This document shows positions 28,121-40,550 of a DNA stretch of 64,000 bases, one piece after another; the first letter of the stretch is position 1; each line of letters opens with the position of its first letter. The notes under the pieces were generated by a model. It saw only the letters and a list, made by a program, of their open reading frames with translations. It was not told the DNA's origin and did not search any database. The stretch is from Nitrospirota bacterium (GTDB lineage: Bacteria > Nitrospirota > UBA9217): NCBI GenBank assembly GCA_963749655.1, contig CAVVOB010000024.1, positions 128,001-192,000 of the forward strand. Reading direction: 5' to 3'. The translations under genes and the position numbers were made by a program.

Positions 28121-28516
28121 GGCAGGATTGAATAATGATCGATAACGCTTCTGGAATCCCGATTCTTACGGCAGCAGTTTCCGGCCGACTCGAACGAACT
28201 GCCGGCTTCATTAGGGAAATGCATCGACCCGAGTTTGTAACAGCATTTCATGGTTTTCGATTCGATTCCCTTCCTTCGGACGGGCTCTCTGCACCGCCGA
28301 AGAAAGCCGGGATACTCCTGTTCGGTCACTCCTTACAAAAACACTCCCCTTCTTCCCGGAGGGTAAGGTTCCGGTAATGTGTCATAGAGTCAACAATACT
28401 TTTCAAAATTCGCATAGGTGCCATTTCCGTCCTGTCAATTGTTCCCGGTATTTTTTCTTGACAAATCGGGAGCTTCTCTATATAATTCGTCACTTGCAGC
28501 CCCTGGAGTAAAAGCA

Positions 28517-29035
28517 ATGGGCATCAAAATCAAAGACATACCGCCTGAGGGGCTGTCACTGAAATTGGAGCAGCAGCTCGATCTTTTCGATCAGGGCAGC
28601 GCGTCGACCACGTTCACCGCGGTCCTGAATATCGCCCCGGGCGGAAACGGCGTCATCCATATCTCGGGGCGCGTCAAGGCGGTTCCTGTCCTGGAATGCA
28701 GCCGCTGCCTCGAACGCTTCGGTTTCAGCATAGACTCGGAAGTGAATATCGATCTTGCTCCGGTGAGTTCGCTCAGCGGCGGTGCAGAGCATGAGCTCGG
28801 CGGCGCGGAACTCGACATGGAGTTTTACGACGGTGAGGAAGTCGAGCCTGTTGACATTATAAAAGAGCAGATGCTCATTTCCCTGCCCATGGTCCCGCTT
28901 CACAGTCCCGGCTGCAAGGGTCTTTGCACCGTCTGCGGGGCGGACCTGAATAAAACAGATTGCGGTCATCAGCGGAATGCACCGGGAGACTTCGGTGCAT
29001 TTTCAGCGTTGAAGGATTTCCTGAAAAAACAATAA
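28517..29035 (+). CDS. yceD: YceD/DUF177 family protein
   Basis: ECSRCL and CKGLC.VCG.DLN motifs; canonical position before rpmF. Confidence 0.9.
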   Translation: MGIKIKDIPPEGLSLKLEQQLDLFDQGSASTTFTAVLNIAPGGNGVIHISGRVKAVPVLECSRCLERFGFSIDSEVNIDLAPVSSLSGGAEHELGGAELDMEFYDGEEVEPVDIIKEQMLISLPMVPLHSPGCKGLCTVCGADLNKTDCGHQRNAPGDFGAFSALKDFLKKQ

Positions 29036-29053: not shown

Positions 29054-29239
29054 ATGGCAAACCCAAAACACAGACATTCCAAGTCCCGCAGGGACAAGCG
29101 ACGCACGGAAAAACAAAAACTCATGGCCCCGAACCTTGCCGTATGCCCGCAATGTCAGGAGGTCAAGAAGCCCCATCATGCCTGCCTGTCATGCGGAACC
29201 TATAACGGCCGCGAGGTCGTGACTGTTCAGCAGATCTAA
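29054..29239 (+). CDS. rpmF: 50S ribosomal protein L32
   Basis: MANPKHRHSKSRRDKRR and CPQC...HHACLSCGTYNGR. Confidence 0.97.
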   Translation: MANPKHRHSKSRRDKRRTEKQKLMAPNLAVCPQCQEVKKPHHACLSCGTYNGREVVTVQQI

Positions 29240-29322: not shown

Positions 29323-30336
29323 ATGAAGATTGCCGTTGATGCGATGGGGGGGGACAACGCGCCGCAAGCCATCGTCGCCGGAGCGGTGCAGGCGGCGAAG
29401 GAATTCGGCGTCGGCATCATCCTGGTGGGCATCGAGCAGGTTGTTCTCGAAGAACTGGCCAGACACCAGCAGGCAAAAACGCTTCCGATCGAAGTCAGGA
29501 ACGCCACGGAAGTGGTGGATATGCTCGACTCCCCTGCCACGGTCTTCCGCCGGAAAAAGAACTCCTCCATCCGGGTGGCCAATGATCTCGTTAAAAGCGG
29601 CGAGGCGGTTGCCGTCATCAGCGCGGGGCATACCGGGGCTGCAATGGCCACCTCCCTGTTCGTGCTCGGTCCGGTGGAAGGAGTGGAGCGCCCTGCGATT
29701 GCGACGTTCATGCCTTCGCTTCGGGGTACGTCCCTCATCCTGGATATGGGTGCAAACGTGGACTGCAAGCCGAACCATCTGCTGCAGTTCGCTATCATGG
29801 GTGATGTCTACGCCAAATATCTGCTGAAGATCGCGAATCCCCGCGTGGGCCTGCTGTCCATCGGAGAGGAAGAGACGAAGGGAAATGAGCTGACGAAGGA
29901 AGCTTTCAAGCTCCTGACGGAGACCTCTCTCAACTTCATCGGAAATGTCGAGGGACGGGACGTCATGTCGGGCAAAGCGGACGTTATCGTCTGCGATGGT
30001 TTCATCGGCAATGTCGTGTTGAAGGTCTCGGAAGCCGTCGCTGAAACCGTGGGGCTCTTCCTGAAGGAGGACATCGAGAAAAGCCTCATCAGGAAACTCG
30101 GCTATCTGCTCGTGCGGCCGGCCTTCCGTAATCTGAAGCGCCGCGTCGACTACGCGGAATACGGCGGCGCGCCGCTTGTCGGCATCAACGGCATCAGCAT
30201 CATCAGCCACGGACGGTCCTCGGACCGGGCCATCAAGAATGCCGTACGGGTAGCCGCCGATCTCGCAAAGAGCGAGGTCAACAAACACATACACGAGGAC
30301 ATTCAAAAGAATATGGAGCTTGCCAAAACCAAATGA
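29323..30336 (+). CDS. plsX: Phosphate acyltransferase PlsX
   Basis: IAVDAMGGD, SAGHTGA, LDMGANVD, GNVEG, DGFIGN, and YGGAPL.G. Confidence 0.97.
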   Translation: MKIAVDAMGGDNAPQAIVAGAVQAAKEFGVGIILVGIEQVVLEELARHQQAKTLPIEVRNATEVVDMLDSPATVFRRKKNSSIRVANDLVKSGEAVAVISAGHTGAAMATSLFVLGPVEGVERPAIATFMPSLRGTSLILDMGANVDCKPNHLLQFAIMGDVYAKYLLKIANPRVGLLSIGEEETKGNELTKEAFKLLTETSLNFIGNVEGRDVMSGKADVIVCDGFIGNVVLKVSEAVAETVGLFLKEDIEKSLIRKLGYLLVRPAFRNLKRRVDYAEYGGAPLVGINGISIISHGRSSDRAIKNAVRVAADLAKSEVNKHIHEDIQKNMELAKTK

Positions 30337-31313
30337 TCCATGCGCGAATTACAGGAACAGGTTCCTATGTACCGAAAAAGATCATCACGAATCAGGACCT
30401 GGAAAAACTCGTTGACACGAGCGATCAATGGATCATCGAGCGGACCGGCATCAAGGAACGCAGGATAGCGGAAAAAGGGCAGACCACCTCGGACCTGGCC
30501 TTCGAGGCAAGCAAAAAGGCCCTCAAGGCAGCCGGTCTCGGACCGGAGGAACTGGACCTCATCCTGGTCGCGACGATGACTCCGGACATGATTCTGCCGA
30601 GCGTAAGCTGCGTGCTCCAGGAAAAACTAGGAGCCCGAAAGGCGGCTTCCTTCGATCTCTATGCCGCCTGTTCCGGCTTTATCTACGGAATGTCCGTAGC
30701 GAACGCTTTCATCAAGGCCGACCTGTATAAAAACATCCTGCTGGTCGGCGCCGAAGTCCTGTCCCGGTTCACGGACTGGGAAGACCGGACCACCTGCATA
30801 CTCTTCGGGGACGGAGCGGGCGCTGCAGTGATCCAGCGCCAGTCCGGCAAACGGGGCATTCTTTCGACGCACCTGCATTCCGACGGATCGCTCGGCGATC
30901 TGATCCACGTTCCCGCCGGCGGAGCCCAGCACCCGGCATCGCACGACACCATCCGCAAACGGATGCACTTCATCAAGATGAAGGGCAATGAGACCTTCAA
31001 GGCGGCTGTGCGGGCTCTTGAGGACGTGGTTGAGGAAGCGTTGGAGCACAACAAGGTAAAACCGGAGGAGATCGATTTCATGGTCCCGCACCAGGCCAAT
31101 CTGCGGATCATCCAGGCCATGGCGCAGCGCCTGAACATGCCCATGGAAAAGGTCGTGCTCACGCTGCCCAAGTACGGCAATACCTCTGCGGCCTCGATCC
31201 CCATGGCCCTGGATGAAGCGGTCCGGGACGGCAGGATCAAGGACAATCACCTCCTCCTGTTCGAGGCCTTCGGCGGCGGCCTGACCTGGGCATCGGCGCT
31301 GGTAAGATGGTGA
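30333..31313 (+). CDS. fabH: 3-oxoacyl-ACP synthase III
   Basis: AACSGF, FGDGAGA, PHQANLRI, GNTSAAS, and FGGGLTW. Confidence 0.97.
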   Translation: MIHARITGTGSYVPKKIITNQDLEKLVDTSDQWIIERTGIKERRIAEKGQTTSDLAFEASKKALKAAGLGPEELDLILVATMTPDMILPSVSCVLQEKLGARKAASFDLYAACSGFIYGMSVANAFIKADLYKNILLVGAEVLSRFTDWEDRTTCILFGDGAGAAVIQRQSGKRGILSTHLHSDGSLGDLIHVPAGGAQHPASHDTIRKRMHFIKMKGNETFKAAVRALEDVVEEALEHNKVKPEEIDFMVPHQANLRIIQAMAQRLNMPMEKVVLTLPKYGNTSAASIPMALDEAVRDGRIKDNHLLLFEAFGGGLTWASALVRW

Positions 31314-31334
31314 AACAGGACAAACACCACGTGG

Positions 31335-31445
31335 CAAGCATCAAATTTCAAACAAACTCCAGATACGAAATGTAAAACGTTTCAGAGAGTGAAATTCCGT
31401 ATTTAGAATTTATTTGTGATTTGTTATTTGGAATTTGAAATTTTC
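31335..31445. repeat. Inverted array of about 7-nt CAAAT/ATTTG units (intergenic hairpin cassette)
   Basis: Starts CAAGCATCAAAT (reverse complement of 21286-21297) and ends gatttgttatttggaatttgaaattt. Confidence 0.65.
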
Positions 31446-31462
31446 TGTAATCGGAGGATGTC

Positions 31463-32619
31463 ATGGACTATTTGCTGACAGAGGATCAGATCATGATACG
31501 CGATCTCGCACGGCAGATCGCGGTCGAGAAGATCGTGCCGGTGCGCGCAGAACTGGACGAACAGAACAAGTTTCCGACGGACATCATGAAGGCCATGGCC
31601 CAGGCGGACCTCTTCGGCATCTACATTCCCGAAGAATACGGCGGCCTCGGCAAAAAGAGCCTCGATCTTTATATCGCCATCGAAGAAATATCGAAGGCCT
31701 GCGTCGGAGTTTCCACCAGCTACGCAGCCAATGCCCTCGGCACCTACCCCATCCTGCTCCACGGTTCCGATGCCCAGAAAAAGAAGTATCTGCCCGACAT
31801 CGCGTCGGGAAAAAACCTCGCGGCATTCGGACTGACCGAAGCGAACGCCGGCAGCGACGCCAGCGGCGTACAGACCACGGCCAAGCTCGACGGAAACGAG
31901 TATGTTGCTGAACGGCACGAAGCAATGGATCACGAACGGCGGCGAGGCGGAGATATACACCGTCATCGCCATCACGGACAAGTCAAAGGGCGCCCGCGGC
32001 GCCTCTGCTTTATCGTGGAAAAAGGTACGCCCGGCTTCACCTTCGGGAAGAAAGAAAACAAGATGGGCATCCGCGCATCGTCCACGACCGAACTCATCTT
32101 CAACAACTGCCGCATTCCCAAGGAAAACCTGATCGCCAAGGAAGGCCTGGGATTCATCGTGGCCATGAAGACCCTCGACTGCTCCCGTGCAGGAGTGGGC
32201 GCCCAGGGCGTCGGCGTGGCCCAGGGCGCCATCGACGAGGCATCAAGTTCGCCAAGGGCAGGGTCCAGTTCGGCCAGCCCATCACCTCATTCCAGGCCAT
32301 TCAGCACATGCTTGCGGACATGCAGACCCAGACCGAGGCGGCCCGCGCCCTGGTCTATTCCGTGGCCCGCATGATGGACAGCGGAGCCAAGGACTTCTCC
32401 CGTGCTTCTGCCATGGCAAAGCTCTTCGCCACCGACACCGCCATGAAGGTGACCACCGACGCCGTCCAGATCATGGGCGGTTCGGGCTATATGAAAGAGT
32501 ACCCCGTCGAAAAAATGATGCGCGACGCCAAGATCCTCCAGATCTATGAGGGAACGAACCAGATCCAGCGCAACGTCATCGCCCTCGACATGATCAAGGA
32601 AGCAACGAGACAGAAATAG
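31463..32619 (+). CDS. Acyl-CoA dehydrogenase, short-chain Bcd/CarC-like (frameshifted)
   Basis: Fragments give PEEYGG, AFGLTEANAGSDA, NGTKQWITNG, KMGIRAS, GGSGY, and RDAKILQIYEGTNQIQR. Confidence 0.9.
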
Positions 32620-32709
32620 CAGATACCGAAGCGGTGAGGCGTAAGGAGTAAGGTGAACAAAAGCCTTCGATCGTTTCCGTCTCCCGGTCCTAATGATTCG
32701 GAGAAACCC

Positions 32710-33498
32710 ATGAACATCATCGTTCTTGTCAAACAGGTTCCGGACACATCGGAAGTAAAGATCAACCGGGAGACGAACACGCTCATCCGCGACGGCGTCC
32801 CGAGCATCATCAACCCCTTCGATATGTACGCCATCGAAGAAGCGCTCCGTCTGCGCGAACAACACGGCGGCAAGGTGACGGCCGTGACCATGGGGCCGCC
32901 CCAGGCGGCCGAAGCGCTGAAAGAGGCCGTGGCCATGGGCGTGGACGACGTCGTGCTGCTGTCCGACCGGCGCTTTTGCCGGCGCCGATACCTGGGCCAC
33001 CTCCTATACCCTTTCGCAGGGCATCAAGAAGATCGGCGAGTTACGACCTCATTATTGCGGGCAAGCAGGCCATCGACGGCGACACGGCGCAGGTCGGCCC
33101 GGAGACCGCGGACATGCTCGGCATTCCCTTCGTCGCCTATATAAGGAAGATCGAGCAGGTCGAACGGGAAGAAGATGGTCGTGGAACGCATGATGGACGA
33201 AGGATACGATGTGGTGGAGTCCTCCCTCCCGGCGCTGATAACCGTGGTCAAAGAGATCAACCAGCCGCGGCTGCCCTCGCTGAAGGGCAAAATGAAGGCC
33301 AAAAACCTCAAGGTCACGACCTGGAACGCAAAGATATCGACGCTGACGAGAACATGCTCGGCCTCAAGGGTTCTCCCACGAAGGTCGTCAGGATATTCCC
33401 GCCGGCTCCGCGCGGCCAGCGGGAGATTCTGTCCGGCACGATCGAAGAGCAGGTCGAGCAGGTCGTGAAGAAGTTGAAAGAGCAATCGTTTATTCTAA
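32710..33498 (+). CDS. etfB: Electron transfer flavoprotein beta subunit (frameshifted; end approximate)
   Basis: IVLVKQVPDT, NPFD, TMGPPQA, GKQAIDGDTAQVGP, PRLPS, and GLKGSPTKV across frames. Confidence 0.9.
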
Positions 33499-33586
33499 TG
33501 CAGGATTCAAGTGAAGCAGGATGTGATCATGTCGTCCTTCCCGGCACGGCTTCTGGATTCGGTTGCATCTTTTCAAGGAGCTTCCC

Positions 33587-34780
33587 GTGAGCGTTCAAGT
33601 CATTTCCGACACCTGCACCGGCTGCGAGACCTGTGTCTCCGCCTGCCCCTTCGGCGCCATCGAGATGCGCGACGGCAAGGCCTTCATCACGGAAGGCTGC
33701 ACCCTGTGCGGTGCCTGCATCGAGGCCTGCGAATTCAAGGCCATCGAGCGGACCGGCGAAGAAGCCGTGCCGCGGCAAAGGACCTTTCGGCGTTCAAAGG
33801 CGTCTGGGTCTTTGCAGAACAGCACAAGGGAGAGCATCTCCAGCGTCGCGCTTGAGCTCCTCGGAGAAGGAAGAAAACTGGCCGACAAGCGCAAAACAAA
33901 GCTTTCAGCCGTCTTCATCGGCCACGGCATCAAGGACAAGGCAAAGGACCTCATCGCCTACGGGGCTGACATCGTCTATCTCGCCGATGACCCGGCGCTC
34001 AAGGATTTTAACGACGATTCCTACGCCGCCGTCCTGACCACGCTTGCAACGCAGCACAAACCCGAGATCATCCTCGCCGGCGCAACGGCGATCGGCCGTT
34101 CGTTCTTTCCCAAGGTCGCCGCTAAGCTCTATACCGGACTTACGGCCGACTGCACCGTGCTCGATATCGACGCCGAGACCGGCCACCTGCACCAGACCCG
34201 TCCGGCTTTCGGCGGCAATATCATGGCCACCATCGTCACGCCGAACCACCGGCCCCAGATGGCGACGGTCAGGCACAAGGTCATGAAACCGTCCGTCCGC
34301 GACGATTCCCGGACCGGCGATATCATCACGATCTCATACAATCAGTCGGGCAGCCTGCGCACGAAGGTCCTCAAGACCGTAGAAGAACTGGGCGAGACCG
34401 TGAATATCTGCGAAGCCGACATCATCGTCGCCGGAGGCCGCGGCCTCGGCAGCGCCAAGAACTTCCAGCTGATCGAAGAGCTCGCCAAGGTCCTCGGCGG
34501 CGCTGTCGCGGCAACGCGCGGCGCAGTTGATGAAGGATGGATCCCCTATCCTCACCAGGTGGGACAGACCGGCAAGACCGTCTGCCCCAAGCTCTACATC
34601 GCCTGCGGCATCTCCGGCGCAATCCAGCATGTAGCCGGCATGCAGTCCTCTGAAGTGATCGTCGCCATCAACAAAGACCCCGACGCGCCCATCTTCAACG
34701 TCGCCACTTACGGCATCGTCGGCGACGTCCACGAGGTCCTTCCCATCATGATCAAGAAGATCAAGGAAATGCGGGGATAA
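33587..34780 (+). CDS. etfA: Electron transfer flavoprotein alpha subunit with N-terminal 2[4Fe-4S] ferredoxin domain
   Basis: [12 protein letters not shown] and [11 protein letters not shown], then [20 protein letters not shown] and GISGAIQH. Compensating indels near 33770-33835 hide GVWVFAEQ. Confidence 0.92.
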
Positions 34781-34781
34781 C

Positions 34782-35718
34782 ATGAAAATCGCCTTCCTTT
34801 TCCCGGCCAGGGCTCTCAGTACGCGGGCATGGCCAAGGAGTTCATCGAACACTTCCACGGAATCCAAGGAGGTCTTCGACAGTGCCAGCCGACGCACTCG
34901 GCTATCGACCTTGCGGACTGTGCATGCACGGCCCTGTCGAGAAGCTGAACCTCACGGAGAACACCCAGCCTGCGATCCTCGCTGCGAGCATCGCCATCCT
35001 GATGCCCCTCGAGCGGAGGGGGCTTTCGGCATCGGCGGCAGCCGGCCACAGCCTCGGCGAGTATACGGCAATAACGGCGGTGGGCGGTTTCGACTTCAAG
35101 GACGCGGTTTCACTGGTCCGGAAGCGCGGCAGTACATGCAGGAGGCCGTTCCCGAGGGAACCGGCCTCATGGCGGCCATCCTCGGCATGGACCGCCAGGA
35201 CGTAGAAAAAACTTGCCTTGAAGCGTCCAAAAATGGTATAGTTGCCCCTGCAAATTACAACACCCCGGGCCAGATCGTCATCGCAGGCGAGAAAAAAGCT
35301 GTTGAAAAGGCCATGGAACTCGCCAAAGTCCGGGGGAGCAAAAAAAGTCGTCCCGCTTGCGGTCAGCGTGCCATCACACTGCTCCTTGATGACAACAGGC
35401 CGGAGAGCGGCTTGTCGCGGGAACTCGAGAACGTCACCATCAGCGACCTCCGCGTCCCGATCGTAAACAACGCCGACGCAAAGTTTCTGAGCAAAGCCTC
35501 GGAGCTGAGACCGTCGCTCATCAGGCAGATCAGCTCTCCGCTCTTCTGGGAAGATTCCATCACGGCAATGGTCGCAGGACGGCTTCGACACCTTCATCGA
35601 GATCGGCCCGGGCAAGGTGCTCTCGGGCCTGGTGAAGCGGATCGCCAAGGACGCCCAGGTGCTGAACGTGGAAGATCAAAAGAGCATGAACGATACGCTC
35701 AGCGCTCTCGGATTATAA
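34782..35718 (+). CDS. fabD: Malonyl-CoA:ACP transacylase (several frameshifts)
   Basis: AFLFP(GQG), TENTQPA, GHSLGEY, ANYN.PGQIVIAG, LAVSVPSH, and FIEIGPGKVL across frames. Confidence 0.9.
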
Positions 35719-35739: not shown

Positions 35740-36795
<1,056 letters not shown>

Positions 36796-37064
36796 GCATC
36801 AGATAATCAAGAATACGGACGGCGGGAGAGGGTTCGAAGCATAAGCAACGGCCTTTCATCAGCGCTCCCTCCTCTGTGTTCTGCACCACTTCCAAAAGCC
36901 AGAAGACCTCTCCCGCATGCACAGGGACCGGTTTTTTGGCTTTTCGGATTTTTTCTCCGTAAAAAAGTGAGGCCCCGATTTTTGTCGGCCGGCCGGCGCT
37001 GTTCGTATATATTTTTCATCCGTCAGGCTTCCCTGAACGGAACCCAGGCAGGAGGTATCCTCTT

Positions 37065-38308
37065 TTGAAGAAAAGAGTTGTTGTCACCGGCGTCGGGATG
37101 ATCACTCCCGTCGGTCTCGATACGGAAACAAGCTGGGACAGGCCTCGATCAACGGCAAATCCGGCATCGGCCCGATCACCCAGTTCGATGATAAGACCAT
37201 CCCGACCCAGATCGCGGGCGAGATCCACGGATTCGAGCCGGAAAAGTACATCGAGCCCAAAGAGATAAAAAAGATGGACCGGTTCATCCATCTGGCCATC
37301 GCGGCAAGCCAGATGGCCATGGACATGTCCGGTCTCAAGATCACACCGGAGAACGCCGACCGCGTCGGCGTCATCGTCAGCGCGGGCATCGGCGGCCTGC
37401 CGGCCATCGAGAAATACCACAAGGTCTATCTCGAACGGGGCATCCGCAAGATAACGCCCTTCTTCATCCCCATGCTGATCATCAACGAATCGGCGGGCAT
37501 GATATCGATCCGCTACGGCGCCAAAGGCCCCAACATCTGCGTCGTCACGGCCTGCGCCACGGGGACCCATTCGATCGGCGACGCCTTCAAGTGGATCCAG
37601 CGCGGCGACGCTGATGCCATGATCGCCGGCGGCACGGAATCCTGCATCTGCCCGACCGGCGTAGGCGGTTTCAACGCCATGAAGGCGCTTTCAACACGAA
37701 ACGACGAGCCGGAGCGCGCGAGCCGTCCCTTCGATGCGGAACGCGACGGATTCATCATGGGTGAGGGCTCCGGCGTCGTCATCCTCGAGGAAATGGAGTT
37801 CGCGCTGAAACGCGGCGCGCGCATCTATGCCGAGGTTGTCGGCTACGGGGCCACGGGCGACGCCTATCACATTACGTCGCCGGCGCCGAACGGCGAAGGA
37901 GCCGCGCGGTGCATGAAGATGGCGATCAAGGACGCGGGAATCGCTCCGACGGAGATGGGCTACATCAACGCCCACGGCACATCCACCAAGTTCGGCGACG
38001 AGCTCGAAACAACGGCCATCAAGACCGTGTTCGGCGACTTCGCTTACAAGATACCGGTCAGTTCCACGAAATCCATGACCGGCCATCTGCTCGGCGCGGC
38101 CGGCGGCGTGGAAGCGGTCATCACGGTCCTCGCGCTTGACCGCGGGATGCTGCCTCCGACGATCAATCTCGACAACCCTGATCCGGAGTGCGACCTTGAT
38201 TATATCCCGAATAAAGCGCGGCACACGCAGGTGGACGTTGCCATGTCGAACTCCTTCGGCTTCGGCGGTACGAATGCCTGCCTGGTCTTCAAAAGATTCC
38301 GGAGCTAA
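37065..38308 (+). CDS. fabF: 3-oxoacyl-ACP synthase II (frameshift near 37140)
   Basis: [40 protein letters not shown], and SNSFGFGG. Confidence 0.95.
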
Positions 38309-38309
38309 G

Positions 38310-39002
38310 ATGCCGCTCCTATCGGACATTCAACTGCGGATCAGCCACCGTTTCCGCGACCAGGAGCTGCTCGAACGCGCCCTGACGCACAAGTCCTATG
38401 CTAATGAGAACCGGGTCCCTGCTCACAACGAACGGCTCGAGTTCCTGGGCGACGCCGTTCTCAGCCTCATCGTCAGCGAACACCTGATGAAAAACTGTCC
38501 GGACTCGACCGAGGGGGACCTCTCCCGCCTCCGGGCTGCCGTCGTGAGCGAGCCGGCGCTTGCCGCTGTTGCGCGCGACATCGGCCTCGGCAGTTATCTC
38601 CTGCTCGGCAAAGGAGAGGAACAGACCGGCGGCAGAGACAAGGATTCCCTGCTCGCGAACTGCCTTGAAGCGCTCATCGCATCCGTCTACCTCGATGGGG
38701 GCCTGCCTGTCGCCGAAGCCCTGGTCATCCGCCTTTTCGAAAAAACGGTCCAAAGGACCTGCACCTCCCGGGGCACCCTCGACTACAAAACGGAGCTCCA
38801 GGAGCTGAGTCAGGAGCGCATGAAACAGCTCCCTGAATACCGGATCGTGTCCGAAACCGGTCCTGACCATCAGAAGCAGTTCACCGTAGAGCTCTCCATC
38901 AACAGTGAAATCTGCGGCCGCGGCACAGGCAGGAGTAAAAAGGATGCGGAGCAGAAAGCGGCCAGGGAAGCGCTGAAAAAACTGACTGGCCGGGAAGCGT
39001 GA
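38310..39002 (+). CDS. rnc: Ribonuclease III
   Basis: ALTHKS, NERLEFLGDAVL, and dsRBD (DYKTELQE, GPDH, SKKDAEQ.AA). Confidence 0.97.
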   Translation: MPLLSDIQLRISHRFRDQELLERALTHKSYANENRVPAHNERLEFLGDAVLSLIVSEHLMKNCPDSTEGDLSRLRAAVVSEPALAAVARDIGLGSYLLLGKGEEQTGGRDKDSLLANCLEALIASVYLDGGLPVAEALVIRLFEKTVQRTCTSRGTLDYKTELQELSQERMKQLPEYRIVSETGPDHQKQFTVELSINSEICGRGTGRSKKDAEQKAAREALKKLTGREA

Positions 39003-39100: not shown

Positions 39101-40114
39101 ATGATCATCCCATTCTTCATCACCCACGCCGGATGTCCGCACCAATGTGTGTTCTGCAACCAGAAGAATATCGTCGGCCAATATGAACCGGAAACGCCTG
39201 CAGCCGTATCCCATAAAATAGACGCTTATCTGGGACAACACAGCTCGCCGGAGTCCGTTTACGTTGCCTTCTACGGTGGAACGTTTACGGCCCTTCCGCT
39301 GGAGATGCAAAACTCCTACCTCGAATCCGTCATGCCGTTCATCCGCGACGGCCGCGTCCGGAGCACCAGGGTTTCCACCCGTCCTGATTGCCTGAGCCGT
39401 GAAAAAATTCAGTTTCTCAAGGCCGGTCATGTGGCCGTCGTGGAGCTGGGCATCCAGTCCATGGACGATCGTGTCCTTGAGCTTTCCGGCCGCGGCCACA
39501 CCGCAGAGGATGCGCGGAATGCCGTGGCCTTGTTAAAGGAATTCGGCATGGGCGTCGGCTTGCAGCTCATGCCCGGACTGCCCGGTGATTCTGAAGTTCT
39601 GTTCTCGGAAACCGTTGACAAAGTCCTTCAGCTCAAGCCTGATGCTGTCCGTCTTTATCCCGCGGTCGTTATCAAAGGCACCCCGCTCGAGGAGCTGTAC
39701 CTCGCGCGGCGATACATTCCGCTGACGCTGGAACAGGCCGTTGCCGTCTGCCGGGATGCCCTGGCGAAATTCAGGCGAGCCGGCATCCCGGTCATCCGCA
39801 TGGGACTGCAGCCGTGCGTTGAGCTGGAAACGCCGGGTACGGTCCTTGACGGTCCGTTCCATCCTGCCTTTGGCCAGCTTGTGGAATCTGCTCTCTTCCT
39901 GGAGAACATGCGGATTGAAGTGCGCAGCCGGGAAAAATACGTTGGCAACACCGCTGTTTTTCTGGTGCACCCCAGGGATATCTCTACAGCAACAGGGCAG
40001 CGGCGTTCAAATATCGATGCGTTGAGGAAAGAGTTCGGATTTCAGGCTGTGCGTATCAGGGGAGACTGTGTCGTTCCGGCCGGGGGGACGCCTATCCTTC
40101 TTTCAGTTTCTTGA
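39101..40114 (+). CDS. Radical SAM protein, Elp3/YhcC-like
   Basis: GCPHQCVFC, FYGGTFT, STRPD, ELGIQS, and QLMPGLPG. Confidence 0.88.
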   Translation: MIIPFFITHAGCPHQCVFCNQKNIVGQYEPETPAAVSHKIDAYLGQHSSPESVYVAFYGGTFTALPLEMQNSYLESVMPFIRDGRVRSTRVSTRPDCLSREKIQFLKAGHVAVVELGIQSMDDRVLELSGRGHTAEDARNAVALLKEFGMGVGLQLMPGLPGDSEVLFSETVDKVLQLKPDAVRLYPAVVIKGTPLEELYLARRYIPLTLEQAVAVCRDALAKFRRAGIPVIRMGLQPCVELETPGTVLDGPFHPAFGQLVESALFLENMRIEVRSREKYVGNTAVFLVHPRDISTATGQRRSNIDALRKEFGFQAVRIRGDCVVPAGGTPILLSVS

Positions 40115-40391
40115 GAAGGAACAGGCTGAGTTGAAATTTTTTGCCTTCTTCTTCCAGCACGAGCTTGTAAAAATCGCACTTCTCGCAATGCTCGTATTTT
40201 TTCGCAAAGGTACCCTGGATTTCGCCCGCGCACATCGTTCCCGCAACAACCCAGCATGCCCTCCCGGCGTTCCTGCCGTCATGGGTTCCCTGCAGCTTTT
40301 TCTCCGTTGCCGAAGGGCAAATACCGAGGTCTTCATGGTTGCCGCCGGGCTCACGGCCGCATTTCTTTACTTCCCAGCAATTCTTCTTCAT
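40092..40391 (-). CDS. Small Cys-rich two-CW domain protein
   Basis: NCWEVKKCGR...ICP...AGRACWVVAGTMC...CEKCDFY. Confidence 0.75.
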   Translation of the reverse strand: MKKNCWEVKKCGREPGGNHEDLGICPSATEKKLQGTHDGRNAGRACWVVAGTMCAGEIQGTFAKKYEHCEKCDFYKLVLEEEGKKFQLSLFLLKKLKEG

Positions 40392-40550
40392 CGTAGCTCT
40401 CGTTTCTTGCAGGTTTGAGCCCATTCCGGCATCCGGATTTTAACGACAGGCAAGACCGGCCACGCTTCAGGATCGATACGCCAGGAGAATAGAAATCAGG
40501 AAAACGGGAAAGAGTGTGGGGAACCGACGAAATCCCTTCAGGGACTTCGC

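Follow-up and report, generated by a model that had tools for sequence, protein, structure and literature searches.

A 64,000-nt stretch of contig CAVVOB010000024.1 (positions 128,001 to 192,000), here called the window, carries a fatty acid synthesis (fab) cluster of the classical yceD-rpmF-plsX-fab type into which three further genes, acd, etfB, and etfA, are inserted between fabH and fabD (31463-34780). This trio encodes a member of the acyl-coenzyme A (CoA) dehydrogenase (ACAD) superfamily and the two subunits of an electron-transferring flavoprotein (Etf), the larger of which begins with a ferredoxin (Fd) domain. A sequence-only reading of the window had suggested that the trio may be an undescribed, energy-conserving enoyl-acyl carrier protein (ACP) reductase for type II fatty acid synthesis (FAS II) or that it may supply acyl-CoA primers to FabH. 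The window's own genome, the Nitrospirota assembly G000, comprises 4.27 Mb in 39 contigs and is 86.6% complete and 5.8% contaminated. A same-genus genome with intact orthologues, G002, served as the reference for frame-corrected alignments. In window coordinates, the features of the region are as follows.

28418-29035, + strand: yceD (DUF177), Pfam YceD, 81 bits; the true start is probably downstream of 28418
28458-28486, + strand: sigma-70-like promoter match TTGACA-17-TATAAT, 12 of 12 consensus positions, 5' of yceD
29054-29239, + strand: rpmF (61 aa), which we take to be ribosomal protein L32 from its position 5' of plsX and its sequence pattern
29323-30336, + strand: plsX (phosphate acyltransferase), intact; Pfam FA_synthesis, 388.9 bits; 83.7% identity to G002 in one frame
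30333-31313, + strand: fabH (KAS III), intact; Pfam ACP_syn_III and ACP_syn_III_C; 89.6% identity to G002 in one frame
31463-32619, + strand: acd (Bcd-type acyl-CoA dehydrogenase family; proposed catalytic subunit), Pfam Acyl-CoA_dh_N and part of Acyl-CoA_dh_M
32710-~33497, + strand: etfB (bifurcating-type Etf beta, small subunit), Pfam ETF on both fragments
33563-34780, + strand: Fd-etfA (Etf alpha, large subunit; N-terminal 2x[4Fe-4S] ferredoxin domain at ~33593-33758), Pfam Fer4, ETF, and ETF_alpha
34782-35718, + strand: fabD (malonyl-CoA:ACP transacylase); the G002 FabD matches Pfam Acyl_transf_1, and the raw window open reading frame (ORF) has no Pfam match
35740-36481, + strand: fabG (3-oxoacyl-ACP reductase), Pfam adh_short
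36553-36795, + strand: acpP (acyl carrier protein), intact, with a DSL motif; Pfam PP-binding
37029-38308, + strand: fabF (KAS II), Pfam ketoacyl-synt N and C
38310-39002, + strand: rnc (RNase III), intact; Pfam Ribonucleas_3_3 and dsrm
39101-40114, + strand: radical-SAM (rSAM) gene, intact; Pfam Radical_SAM and Radical_SAM_C; 3' of rnc in all family loci examined

The gene order plsX-fabH-[acd-etfB-Fd/etfA]-fabD-fabG-acpP-fabF-rnc, all on the + strand, is the one that the sequence-only reading had described. Its claim of a 1-nt gap between etfA and fabD is borne out by the etfA stop ending at 34780 and the fabD ATG at 34782, and, as it had also stated, no FabI- or FabK-like ORF was found within the fab cluster of the window. 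The span that it had assigned, 30333-35718, runs from fabH to fabD and is thus wider than the trio alone. All the features that it had named are present; the frame breaks that interrupt six of the genes in the window had gone unmentioned. The plsX and fabH genes overlap by 4 nt, and the remaining gaps measure 21 to 233 nt. From fabH to the end of the rSAM gene, no intergenic + strand terminators were found, as matches lie only inside genes and their number equals the chance expectation. Promoter-like sites in the region number five, with 3.7 expected, and the match at 28458-28486 is a possible start of a yceD-rpmF-plsX-fab transcription unit.

By family assignment, the trio is a Bcd/CarCDE-type complex made up of an ACAD and a bifurcating-type Etf. 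The G002 acyl-CoA dehydrogenase (ACD) matches Pfam Acyl-CoA_dh_N (119 bits), Acyl-CoA_dh_M (94 bits), and Acyl-CoA_dh_1 (176 bits), which places it in the ACAD superfamily; in the window copy, frame breaks leave only the N domain and part of the M domain recognisable. Glu E363, within the motif YEGTNQIQ, is invariant in seven of seven aligned ACD orthologues, and we take it to be the catalytic base, as in MCAD and Bcd. The best match among solved structures is C. difficile Bcd (5OL2_C, 418 bits), followed by other short- and medium-chain ACADs.

Both Etf subunits resemble Etfs with experimentally demonstrated bifurcation (of the kind found in Bcd-Etf, CarDE, Ldh-Etf, and EtfABCX) more closely than they do the canonical, AMP-containing ones. 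EtfA scores 280 to 392 bits against solved bifurcating Etfs versus 128 to 155 bits against nonbifurcating ones, and the corresponding ranges for the G002 EtfB are 209 to 266 and 66 to 91 bits, so the bifurcating-type assignment made earlier from motifs is upheld. The top match of EtfA is CarE (6FAH_A, 392 bits), which aligns over residues 10 to 401 with the ferredoxin domain included; the alpha subunits of the other bifurcating Etfs reach 280 to 310 bits. This N-terminal 2[4Fe-4S] domain, present as the sequence-only reading had claimed, contains eight Cys in two Cys-x2-Cys-x2-Cys-x3-Cys groups, is matched by Pfam Fer4 in two stretches and also by Fer4_7, and is aligned in 50 of 52 related EtfA matches. 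The motifs cited in that reading were likewise recovered: TRPAFGG in the window EtfA translation, and NPFD and DGDTAQVGP of EtfB both in the window translations, where they fall in different reading frames because etfB is frame-broken, and in the alignment of the G002 protein with CarD. The two EtfB motifs presumably mark the second FAD/NADH (bifurcation) site. None of the three proteins reaches an NCBIfam equivalog cut-off, and none has a dedicated NCBIfam model; the best models are AcrC (473.7 bits; cut-off, 640), AcrB (242.4 bits; cut-off, 475), and AcrA (336.9 bits; cut-off, 600).

A frameshift-aware alignment to the intact G002 orthologues placed 20 frame-breaking indels in six window genes: three in acd (near 31907, 32007, and 32243), four in etfB (near 32971, 33041, 33165, and 33328), two in etfA, eight in fabD, one in fabG (near 36211), and two in fabF (near 37137 and 37147). 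The etfA breaks (~33773 and ~33835) are a compensating pair that garbles about 20 linker residues and leaves the frame open (405 aa). No indel was needed for plsX, fabH, acpP, rnc, or the rSAM gene in the same comparison. After frame correction, residues identical to G002 amount to 345 of 383 for ACD (385 aa in G002), 223 of 260 for EtfB, 243 of 308 for FabD, 221 of 246 for FabG, and 356 of 425 for FabF; the six interrupted genes together range from 79 to 90% identity and have zero internal stop codons.

Taken by themselves, 20 indels spread over acd, etfB, etfA, fabD, fabG, and fabF might indicate a decaying pseudogene array without current function, an explanation that we regard as very improbable. 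The essential genes fabD, fabG, and fabF are as damaged as the trio. Moreover, when conserved orthologues were sampled from 12 random 20-kb pieces of G002, 8 of 31 proved to be split over frames in G000 as well, on 7 contigs. The copies in relatives are intact in 9 of the 10 family-level loci examined, and short contigs of related organisms from a wetland metagenome (88 to 99% alike) carry the opposite indel, a base more or a base fewer, no more than 6 nt away from four of the inferred breaks (32011, 32239, 33767, and 33833); these contigs show only that relatives are in frame. Because the essential fab genes are hit equally, corrected identity remains at 79 to 90%, split genes occur genome-wide, and relatives are intact, we read the indels as genome-wide assembly noise and not local decay. 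It follows that the gene calls and completeness estimates of G000 are affected too. Examples of split genes elsewhere in this genome are found at C28:218531, C38:154914, C30:314574, C13:253977, C32:58082, and C16:97535-102550, and another lies upstream within the window at ~23279. The coverage of stop-free frames of at least 250 aa was also tried as a test for decay and gave no separation (0.71 for G000 and 0.735 for relatives' loci); it is uninformative because wrong frames stay open at such a G+C content, and the orthologue frame test was used instead.

Conservation of the linkage between acd-etf and fab genes was assessed by scanning one genome per GTDB species with an alignment of seven ACDs and keeping the best 80 loci, all of which are at least 67% identical. 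A locus was called fab-linked if tblastn with the G002 fab proteins found one or more fab genes within 10 kb or on the same locus. In the window's family (f1; the labels f2, f3, f4, f5, and f11 denote other Nitrospirota families), 9 of the 10 loci examined have the full order plsX-fabH-acd-etfB-etfA-fabD-fabG-acpP-fabF-rnc-rSAM, and the tenth keeps plsX-fabH-acd-etfB-etfA. Both f3 loci have the full order with proteins that are 59 to 73% identical. Families f4 and f11 have acd alone elsewhere (81% identity), and etfB-etfA-fabD are still adjacent. For instance, in the complete genome G036, pdxJ and then acpS (L018:7580-7963) lie directly 5' of etfB-etfA-fabD, and the ACD gene is 380 kb distant. 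The adjacency to acpS is a second, independent tie of the Etf genes to ACP metabolism.

Among the best 80 ACD loci, 45 are fab-linked; another 14 are accompanied by etfBA only, and in the remaining 21, several of which are short contigs, acd stands by itself. Linkage extends well outside Nitrospirota: 27 of the 34 loci that belong neither to Nitrospirota nor to Bacillota are fab-linked, and they bear the labels Thermodesulfobacteriota/"Deltaproteobacteria", Omnitrophota, Margulisiibacteriota, Saganbacteria, and Rokubacteria. The trio occurs in at least four arrangements, namely, from fabH to fabD as in the window; as plsX-(fabH)-acd-etfBA-fabG-acpP-fabF without fabD; after an rnc that ends a complete cluster; and directly after fabF, as in Omnitrophota. 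A linkage that survives such rearrangement across many phyla is strong evidence of a function shared with FAS II. As side observations, a 282-aa ORF without a Pfam match lies between etfB and Fd-etfA on an Omnitrophota chromosome (L113:12040-12888), and a similar gap of ~0.9 kb separates etfB from etfA in L129.

An ACD tree was built with MAFFT and FastTree (LG+gamma) from 86 sequences, comprising the 80 loci, 4 relatives, and, as the root, 2 outgroup paralogues that are 45% identical. It shows a long stem (0.55) followed by a tight group whose clades follow phyla, almost all of them with fab-linked members; from one Nitrospirota family to another, ACD identity is 81%. Such slow, phylum-wise evolution is the pattern that a housekeeping enzyme would show. 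The nine Bacillota ACDs group together in a single nested clade (support, 0.90) that lacks fab neighbours, and the genes found near them code for RACo, a corrinoid protein, FolD, an MFS transporter, a MiaB-like protein, SpoIIR, and VanY. These neighbourhoods were examined for a butyrate pathway, and no fab, crt, or hbd genes were found beside the Bacillota acd-etfBA. Two further differences from the Bacillota clade were seen, neither of which we count as evidence. The mean net charge is -1.1 for fab-linked ACDs (n = 47) and -6.1 for the Bacillota clade (n = 9). Also, R17 and R28 (G002 numbering; window ~31511-31513 and ~31544-31546) occur in at least 91% of the 47 linked ACDs and are Ala in the Bacillota clade; these positions lie in the N-terminal helices, which presumably dock Etf, not substrate.

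If the trio supplies the enoyl-ACP reductase of its hosts, known reductases should be scarce where it occurs, and a search of the genome and a test for anticorrelation had been proposed on that ground. Orthologues were called at E values of ≤1e-144 for Fd-EtfA and ≤1e-58 for true FabI. In G000, E. coli FabI finds only a FabG paralogue (2.8e-12); the FabK model TIGR03151 reaches only 25 bits, and a 490-aa IMPDH-like ORF is the strongest NMO match; no FabL match reaches 1e-55, the best SDR again being a FabG paralogue. FabI, FabK, FabL, and FabV were thus not found in G000, at its 86.6% completeness, nor in 27 further carriers of Fd-EtfA. A second fab-like cluster in G000, on the minus strand (G000:C30:102000-117000; L170), was checked for a hidden reductase. 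It contains two ketosynthases, a FabA-like dehydratase, a FabG-like reductase, two methyltransferases, and an amine-oxidase-like flavoprotein, and no recognisable enoyl reductase was found in it. The best named NCBIfam models for its FabG-like reductase are FabG models, with the flexirubin FlxB model at 235 bits, and the cluster resembles pigment clusters of the aryl-polyene or flexirubin type.

Across 41 Nitrospirota genomes (G000 and 40 relatives), an Fd-EtfA orthologue is present in 28, namely, G000, 23 of 24 f1 genomes, both f3 genomes, f4, and f11. None of these 28 has FabI, FabK over the cut-off, FabL over the cut-off, or FabV, and among the 27 fellow carriers of G000 are four genomes that are 100% complete. 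Of the 13 Fd-EtfA-negative genomes, 12 have FabI (10) or FabK (3), one having both. The thirteenth, G011 (90% complete), lacks a reductase, the ACD orthologue, and plsX, so that the locus as a whole is absent from this assembly. In G025, which has a true FabK and no ACD orthologue, a 67-aa frame (G025:C89:1744-1944) is 75% identical to the EtfA C terminus; it could be contamination or a remnant.

The same pattern recurs in Omnitrophota, from which an evenly drawn sample of 71 genomes was examined. An ACD orthologue (59 to 70% identical) is present in 34, FabI in 16, and a FabL-like protein in 21; the FabL-like proteins score 276 to 316 bits (cut-off, 328), with FabG cross-matches at ~190 to 210 bits. 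FabI or a FabL-like protein was found in 0 of the 34 ACD-positive genomes and in 27 of the 37 ACD-negative ones. Fisher tests give p values of ~1e-9 and ~1e-11, which are overstated, as related genomes are not independent; the recurrence of the pattern in two phyla is more telling than the p values. Among the 48 genomes behind loci L083 to L130, strong FabI occurs in exactly six, all of them Bacillota with unlinked acd-etfBA. In the 30 fab-linked genomes from other phyla, FabI, FabK over the cut-off, and FabV each number 0, and FabL numbers 1 (G068). The predicted anticorrelation of the complex with FabI, FabK, and FabL-like proteins is thus seen in both Nitrospirota and Omnitrophota, and it is not absolute.

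One other explanation is that the trio is a CoA-specific, Bcd/Car-type enoyl-CoA reductase that is located among fab genes for some other reason, such as making saturated short-chain primers for FabH or disposing of reductant, and that the true enoyl-ACP reductase is unrecognised. In its favour, solved butyryl-CoA dehydrogenases and the AcrC model for acryloyl-CoA reductase are the nearest matches of the ACD, the Bacillota members of this orthologous group are unlinked and mostly accompanied by FabI, and the upstream neighbour in the window is fabH, whose product uses acyl-CoA primers. Nevertheless, we consider this explanation quite unlikely. In three complete genomes, G036 (one contig), G027, and G071 (a 1.14-Mb Omnitrophota chromosome), no match to crotonase (PF00378) was found, and 3-hydroxyacyl-CoA dehydrogenase (PF02737) gave only Rossmann-type matches of 26 to 27.5 bits, so that the enzymes that would make an enoyl-CoA are missing from all three. 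FabZ is present in each (113 to 131 bits), and the ACD associated with fab genes is the only gene that the ACAD N-domain model matches. This argument rests on the smaller genomes because G000 and G002 have FadB-like fusions and G002 has two further ACADs. A single conserved ACAD without an enoyl-CoA route is hard to reconcile with butyrate fermentation, beta-oxidation, or crotonyl-CoA primer supply and easy to reconcile with enoyl-ACP made by FabZ. Primer supply to FabH, the second role suggested in the sequence-only reading, is accordingly disfavoured. In addition, two Nitrospirota families keep the Etf genes with fabD and acpS and not with fabH, and in Omnitrophota the trio sits after fabF. 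A CoA-specific role would also give no account of the missing reductase of 28 Nitrospirota and 34 Omnitrophota genomes, nor of that of 24 among the 30 other linked genomes.

A different candidate for the reductase is an NMO-family flavoprotein, as many of the genomes hold a protein of this family that scores 90 to 200 bits on the FabK model. If such a protein were the enoyl-ACP reductase, the trio would perform some other lipid redox function, such as dehydrogenating acyl-ACP or transferring electrons for the anaerobic synthesis of unsaturated fatty acids. A conserved NMO protein of ~367 aa (77 to 84% identical between families) is matched in 21 of the 24 f1 genomes, where its gene has no fab neighbours, and in Omnitrophota, 9 of 10 NMO-like matches are in ACD-positive genomes. 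In two loci, one of them from Margulisiibacteriota (L116), a relative of 324 to 326 aa lies in the same cluster as acd-etfBA. The genes in question are as follows.

L116:15197-16171: in-cluster FabX-like gene, between acpP and fabF
L089:15167-16147: in-cluster FabX-like gene, between acpP and fabF
L131:5346-6449: stand-alone FabX-like copy
L132:4704-5822: stand-alone FabX-like copy
L134:4683-5783: stand-alone FabX-like copy

Structural comparison points away from a FabK-like role. The best solved matches of the 367-aa protein are 7E1Q, 7E1R, and 7E1S (216 bits, full length), versus 57 to 77 bits for FabK structures. These three entries are Helicobacter pylori FabX, an acyl-ACP dehydrogenase/isomerase for unsaturated fatty acid synthesis with oxygen as the final electron acceptor (PMC8626469). 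Four Cys in the FabX-type C-terminal subdomain are present in the Nitrospirota proteins, in both in-cluster proteins, and in six of six Omnitrophota proteins examined, and also in the proteins of G027, G046, G058, G075, and G081. True FabKs have zero Cys there, as does a set of sub-cut-off proteins from G041, G052, G059, G062, G069, and G079 and from the f1 genomes G004, G010, G016, and G018. Moreover, the FabX-like protein is not a general reductase because it was not found in G000, because G071 has no match above 34 bits and, taken with four other small linked genomes, none above 38 bits, and because 25 of the 34 ACD-positive Omnitrophota have no such match. NMO matches with comparable scores are found alongside FabK in f2 and alongside FabI in f5. 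Most of the NMO matches are therefore FabX-like and point to unsaturated fatty acid synthesis, a task in keeping with a fab cluster, and not to competition for the reductase role, and we judge it unlikely that they supply the enoyl-ACP reductase. One idea is that the EtfA ferredoxin domain might act as the electron acceptor of FabX-like proteins in strict anaerobes.

We propose, instead, that the trio is probably an Etf-dependent enoyl-ACP reductase of FAS II in the window's Nitrospirota and in many anaerobic lineages, where it would replace FabI, FabK, FabL, or FabV. Gene identity, family membership, operon position, linkage conservation, and phyletic complementarity are the observations that underlie this proposal, and the genome search, linkage, and anticorrelation all came out as the sequence-only reading had predicted for an undescribed reductase. 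From homology and genomic context, we infer the ACP substrate, the chain-length range, the direction of the reaction, and the reduction of ferredoxin. That the complex also bifurcates electrons to ferredoxin is plausible, at a likelihood that we set a little below even. On a similarly tentative basis, the trio could represent a fifth, mechanistically new class of enoyl-ACP reductase, in which a bifurcating ACAD/EtfB/ferredoxin-EtfA complex is driven by NADH and reduces ferredoxin alongside. As part of that reading, and with the same reserve, it may be the housekeeping reductase in much of Nitrospirota (Thermodesulfovibrionia), Thermodesulfobacteriota, Omnitrophota, Margulisiibacteriota, Saganbacteria, and other anaerobic phyla, often beside a FabX-type enzyme.

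Several observations weigh against this proposal. The ACD resembles an ordinary short-chain acyl-CoA enzyme in its matches to Bcd (418 bits) and AcrC (474 bits, below the cut-off), and neither ACP docking nor a pocket deep enough for C16 chains is indicated by the sequence evidence. The Bacillota clade, which is 68 to 72% identical and belongs to the same orthologous group, has acd-etfB-etfA unlinked to fab genes, with FabI in six of nine genomes; therefore, the complex can have, or once had, another role. Known reductases and the complex do not exclude each other everywhere: 5 of the 30 linked genomes have a Cys-less FabK-like protein (260 to 358 bits, below the cut-off) and 1 of the 30 has FabL, and 4 of the 24 f1 genomes (G004, G010, G016, and G018) have a FabK-like protein of 150 to 258 bits. 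A second, FabK-type reductase in these 5 linked and 4 f1 genomes is possible, and two enoyl-ACP reductases in one bacterium are common. Conversely, 10 of the 37 ACD-negative Omnitrophota have no reductase candidate at all, which makes absence calls noisy. FabV (PF12241) has no match in the sets of 80 and 71 genomes, nor in any control genome, so its blanks are weak. Most of the genomes are metagenome-assembled genomes (MAGs), and relatives among them are not independent. Finally, the window's own copies carry 20 indels, and their integrity rests on the argument for assembly noise.

As an enoyl-ACP reductase, the complex would work through steps proposed by homology to Bcd-Etf and CarCDE. FabZ would first provide trans-2-enoyl-ACP, and NADH would reduce the bifurcating FAD on EtfB. 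One electron would then pass through the FAD of EtfA to the FAD of the ACAD, which would reduce the enoyl thioester with the Glu of YEGTNQIQ as proton donor/acceptor. The second electron would leave by way of the two [4Fe-4S] clusters in the ferredoxin domain of EtfA and reach ferredoxin or flavodoxin. The sum of two such rounds would be 2 NADH + enoyl-ACP + 2 Fd(ox) -> 2 NAD+ + acyl-ACP + 2 Fd(red). In this way, low-potential reducing power would be gained with every elongation cycle as well, and the last step of FAS II would be energy conserving. The machine is of a known kind, and its pathway role and energetic consequence would be new; in a search of full-text literature, outside which most subscription journals lie, no published ACAD/Etf complex acting as a FAS II enoyl-ACP reductase and no acd-etf insertion in fab operons were found.

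Among characterised systems, Bcd-Etf of C. difficile (5OL2) shares the three-subunit makeup (ACAD, 418 bits; EtfA, 291 bits; EtfB, 238 bits) and presumably the chemistry, in which NADH reduces an enoyl thioester with coupled reduction of ferredoxin. Unlike the trio, its own EtfA lacks a ferredoxin domain, its genes do not lie among fab genes, and it acts on crotonyl-CoA in a butyrate pathway beside crotonase and Hbd, which were not found in the three complete complex-bearing genomes. The present ACDs also form a tight group of their own relative to Bcd, being at least 59 to 67% identical across phyla. CarCDE of Acetobacterium woodii (6FAH) provides the best EtfA match in CarE (392 bits, including the 2x[4Fe-4S] domain) and the best EtfB match in CarD (266 bits), whereas CarC is only 23rd among the solved ACD matches (312 bits) and the genomic context differs. 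The substrate of CarCDE is an aromatic acyl-CoA in caffeate respiration.

With FabI and FabL (SDR), FabK (NMO TIM barrel), and FabV, the complex shares the proposed pathway role. The operon position is also comparable, as true fabK lies ~1.2 to 1.3 kb upstream of a fabG-like SDR match in the two f2 genomes, and the phyletic distributions are mutually exclusive, bar the FabK-like, FabL, and Bacillota exceptions listed above. These reductases, however, have unrelated folds and cofactors and are single polypeptides that use NAD(P)H directly, with no Etf, Fe-S cluster, or energy conservation. The trio belongs to the ACAD and ETF families, and none of its members shows homology to the SDR, NMO, or FabV families.

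Two further comparisons concern redox chemistry on carrier proteins. FabX (7E1Q) combines a flavin with [4Fe-4S] in an enoyl/acyl redox step on acyl-ACP, and it has homologues in these genomes, in two cases within the fab cluster that holds the trio; it differs in being an NMO-family and not an ACAD protein, in running in the dehydrogenase direction with isomerisation, and in not being an elongation-cycle reductase (PMC8626469). Within the ACAD fold, the acyl-ACP dehydrogenase MbtN and the prolyl-PCP dehydrogenases RedW and PigA (NCBIfam names) are alike in acting on carrier-protein thioesters, and because their substrates are tethered to phosphopantetheine, the ACAD fold can work on carrier proteins. 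They are unlike the present ACD in being weak matches (85, 258, and 239 bits, respectively, far below cut-off) and in being oxidative enzymes of secondary metabolism that are not Etf-bifurcating.

If the proposal is true, it fills in the missing enoyl-ACP reductase in fatty acid synthesis maps of many uncultured and cultured anaerobes and adds, at a classic antibiotic-target step, a new reductase class with another fold, other cofactors, and other energetics. Flavin-based electron bifurcation would then be built into a core anabolic pathway, beyond fermentations, and elongation cycles would feed low-potential electrons to the energy or CO2-fixing metabolism of strict anaerobes. Current generic calls of acyl-CoA dehydrogenase and Etf would, by the same token, inflate predictions of beta-oxidation and butyrate production in MAGs of the Nitrospirota, Omnitrophota, and Desulfobacterota type. 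The proposal is directly testable, as Thermodesulfovibrio and Thermodesulfatator, which have cultured members, are named among the matches.

Two minor observations were made apart from the trio. Just 3' of the rSAM gene, a 110-aa Cys-rich ORF without a Pfam match (nine Cys, two CW pairs) lies on the - strand at 40092-40424. Outside the window, on contig C3 of G000, a 2629-aa ORF (L137:1085-8974, + strand) contains fused redox modules, namely, an N-terminal pyridine-nucleotide-disulfide oxidoreductase (FAD/NAD(P)), ACAD middle and C-terminal domains at 1678 to 1894, ETF at 2079 to 2185, and ETF_alpha at 2496 to 2577. Many f1 genomes and both f5 genomes contain ORFs of 2639 to 2690 aa that give the same ETF_alpha match, and, judged from its domains, the G000 protein looks like a giant single-chain ACAD-Etf-reductase.

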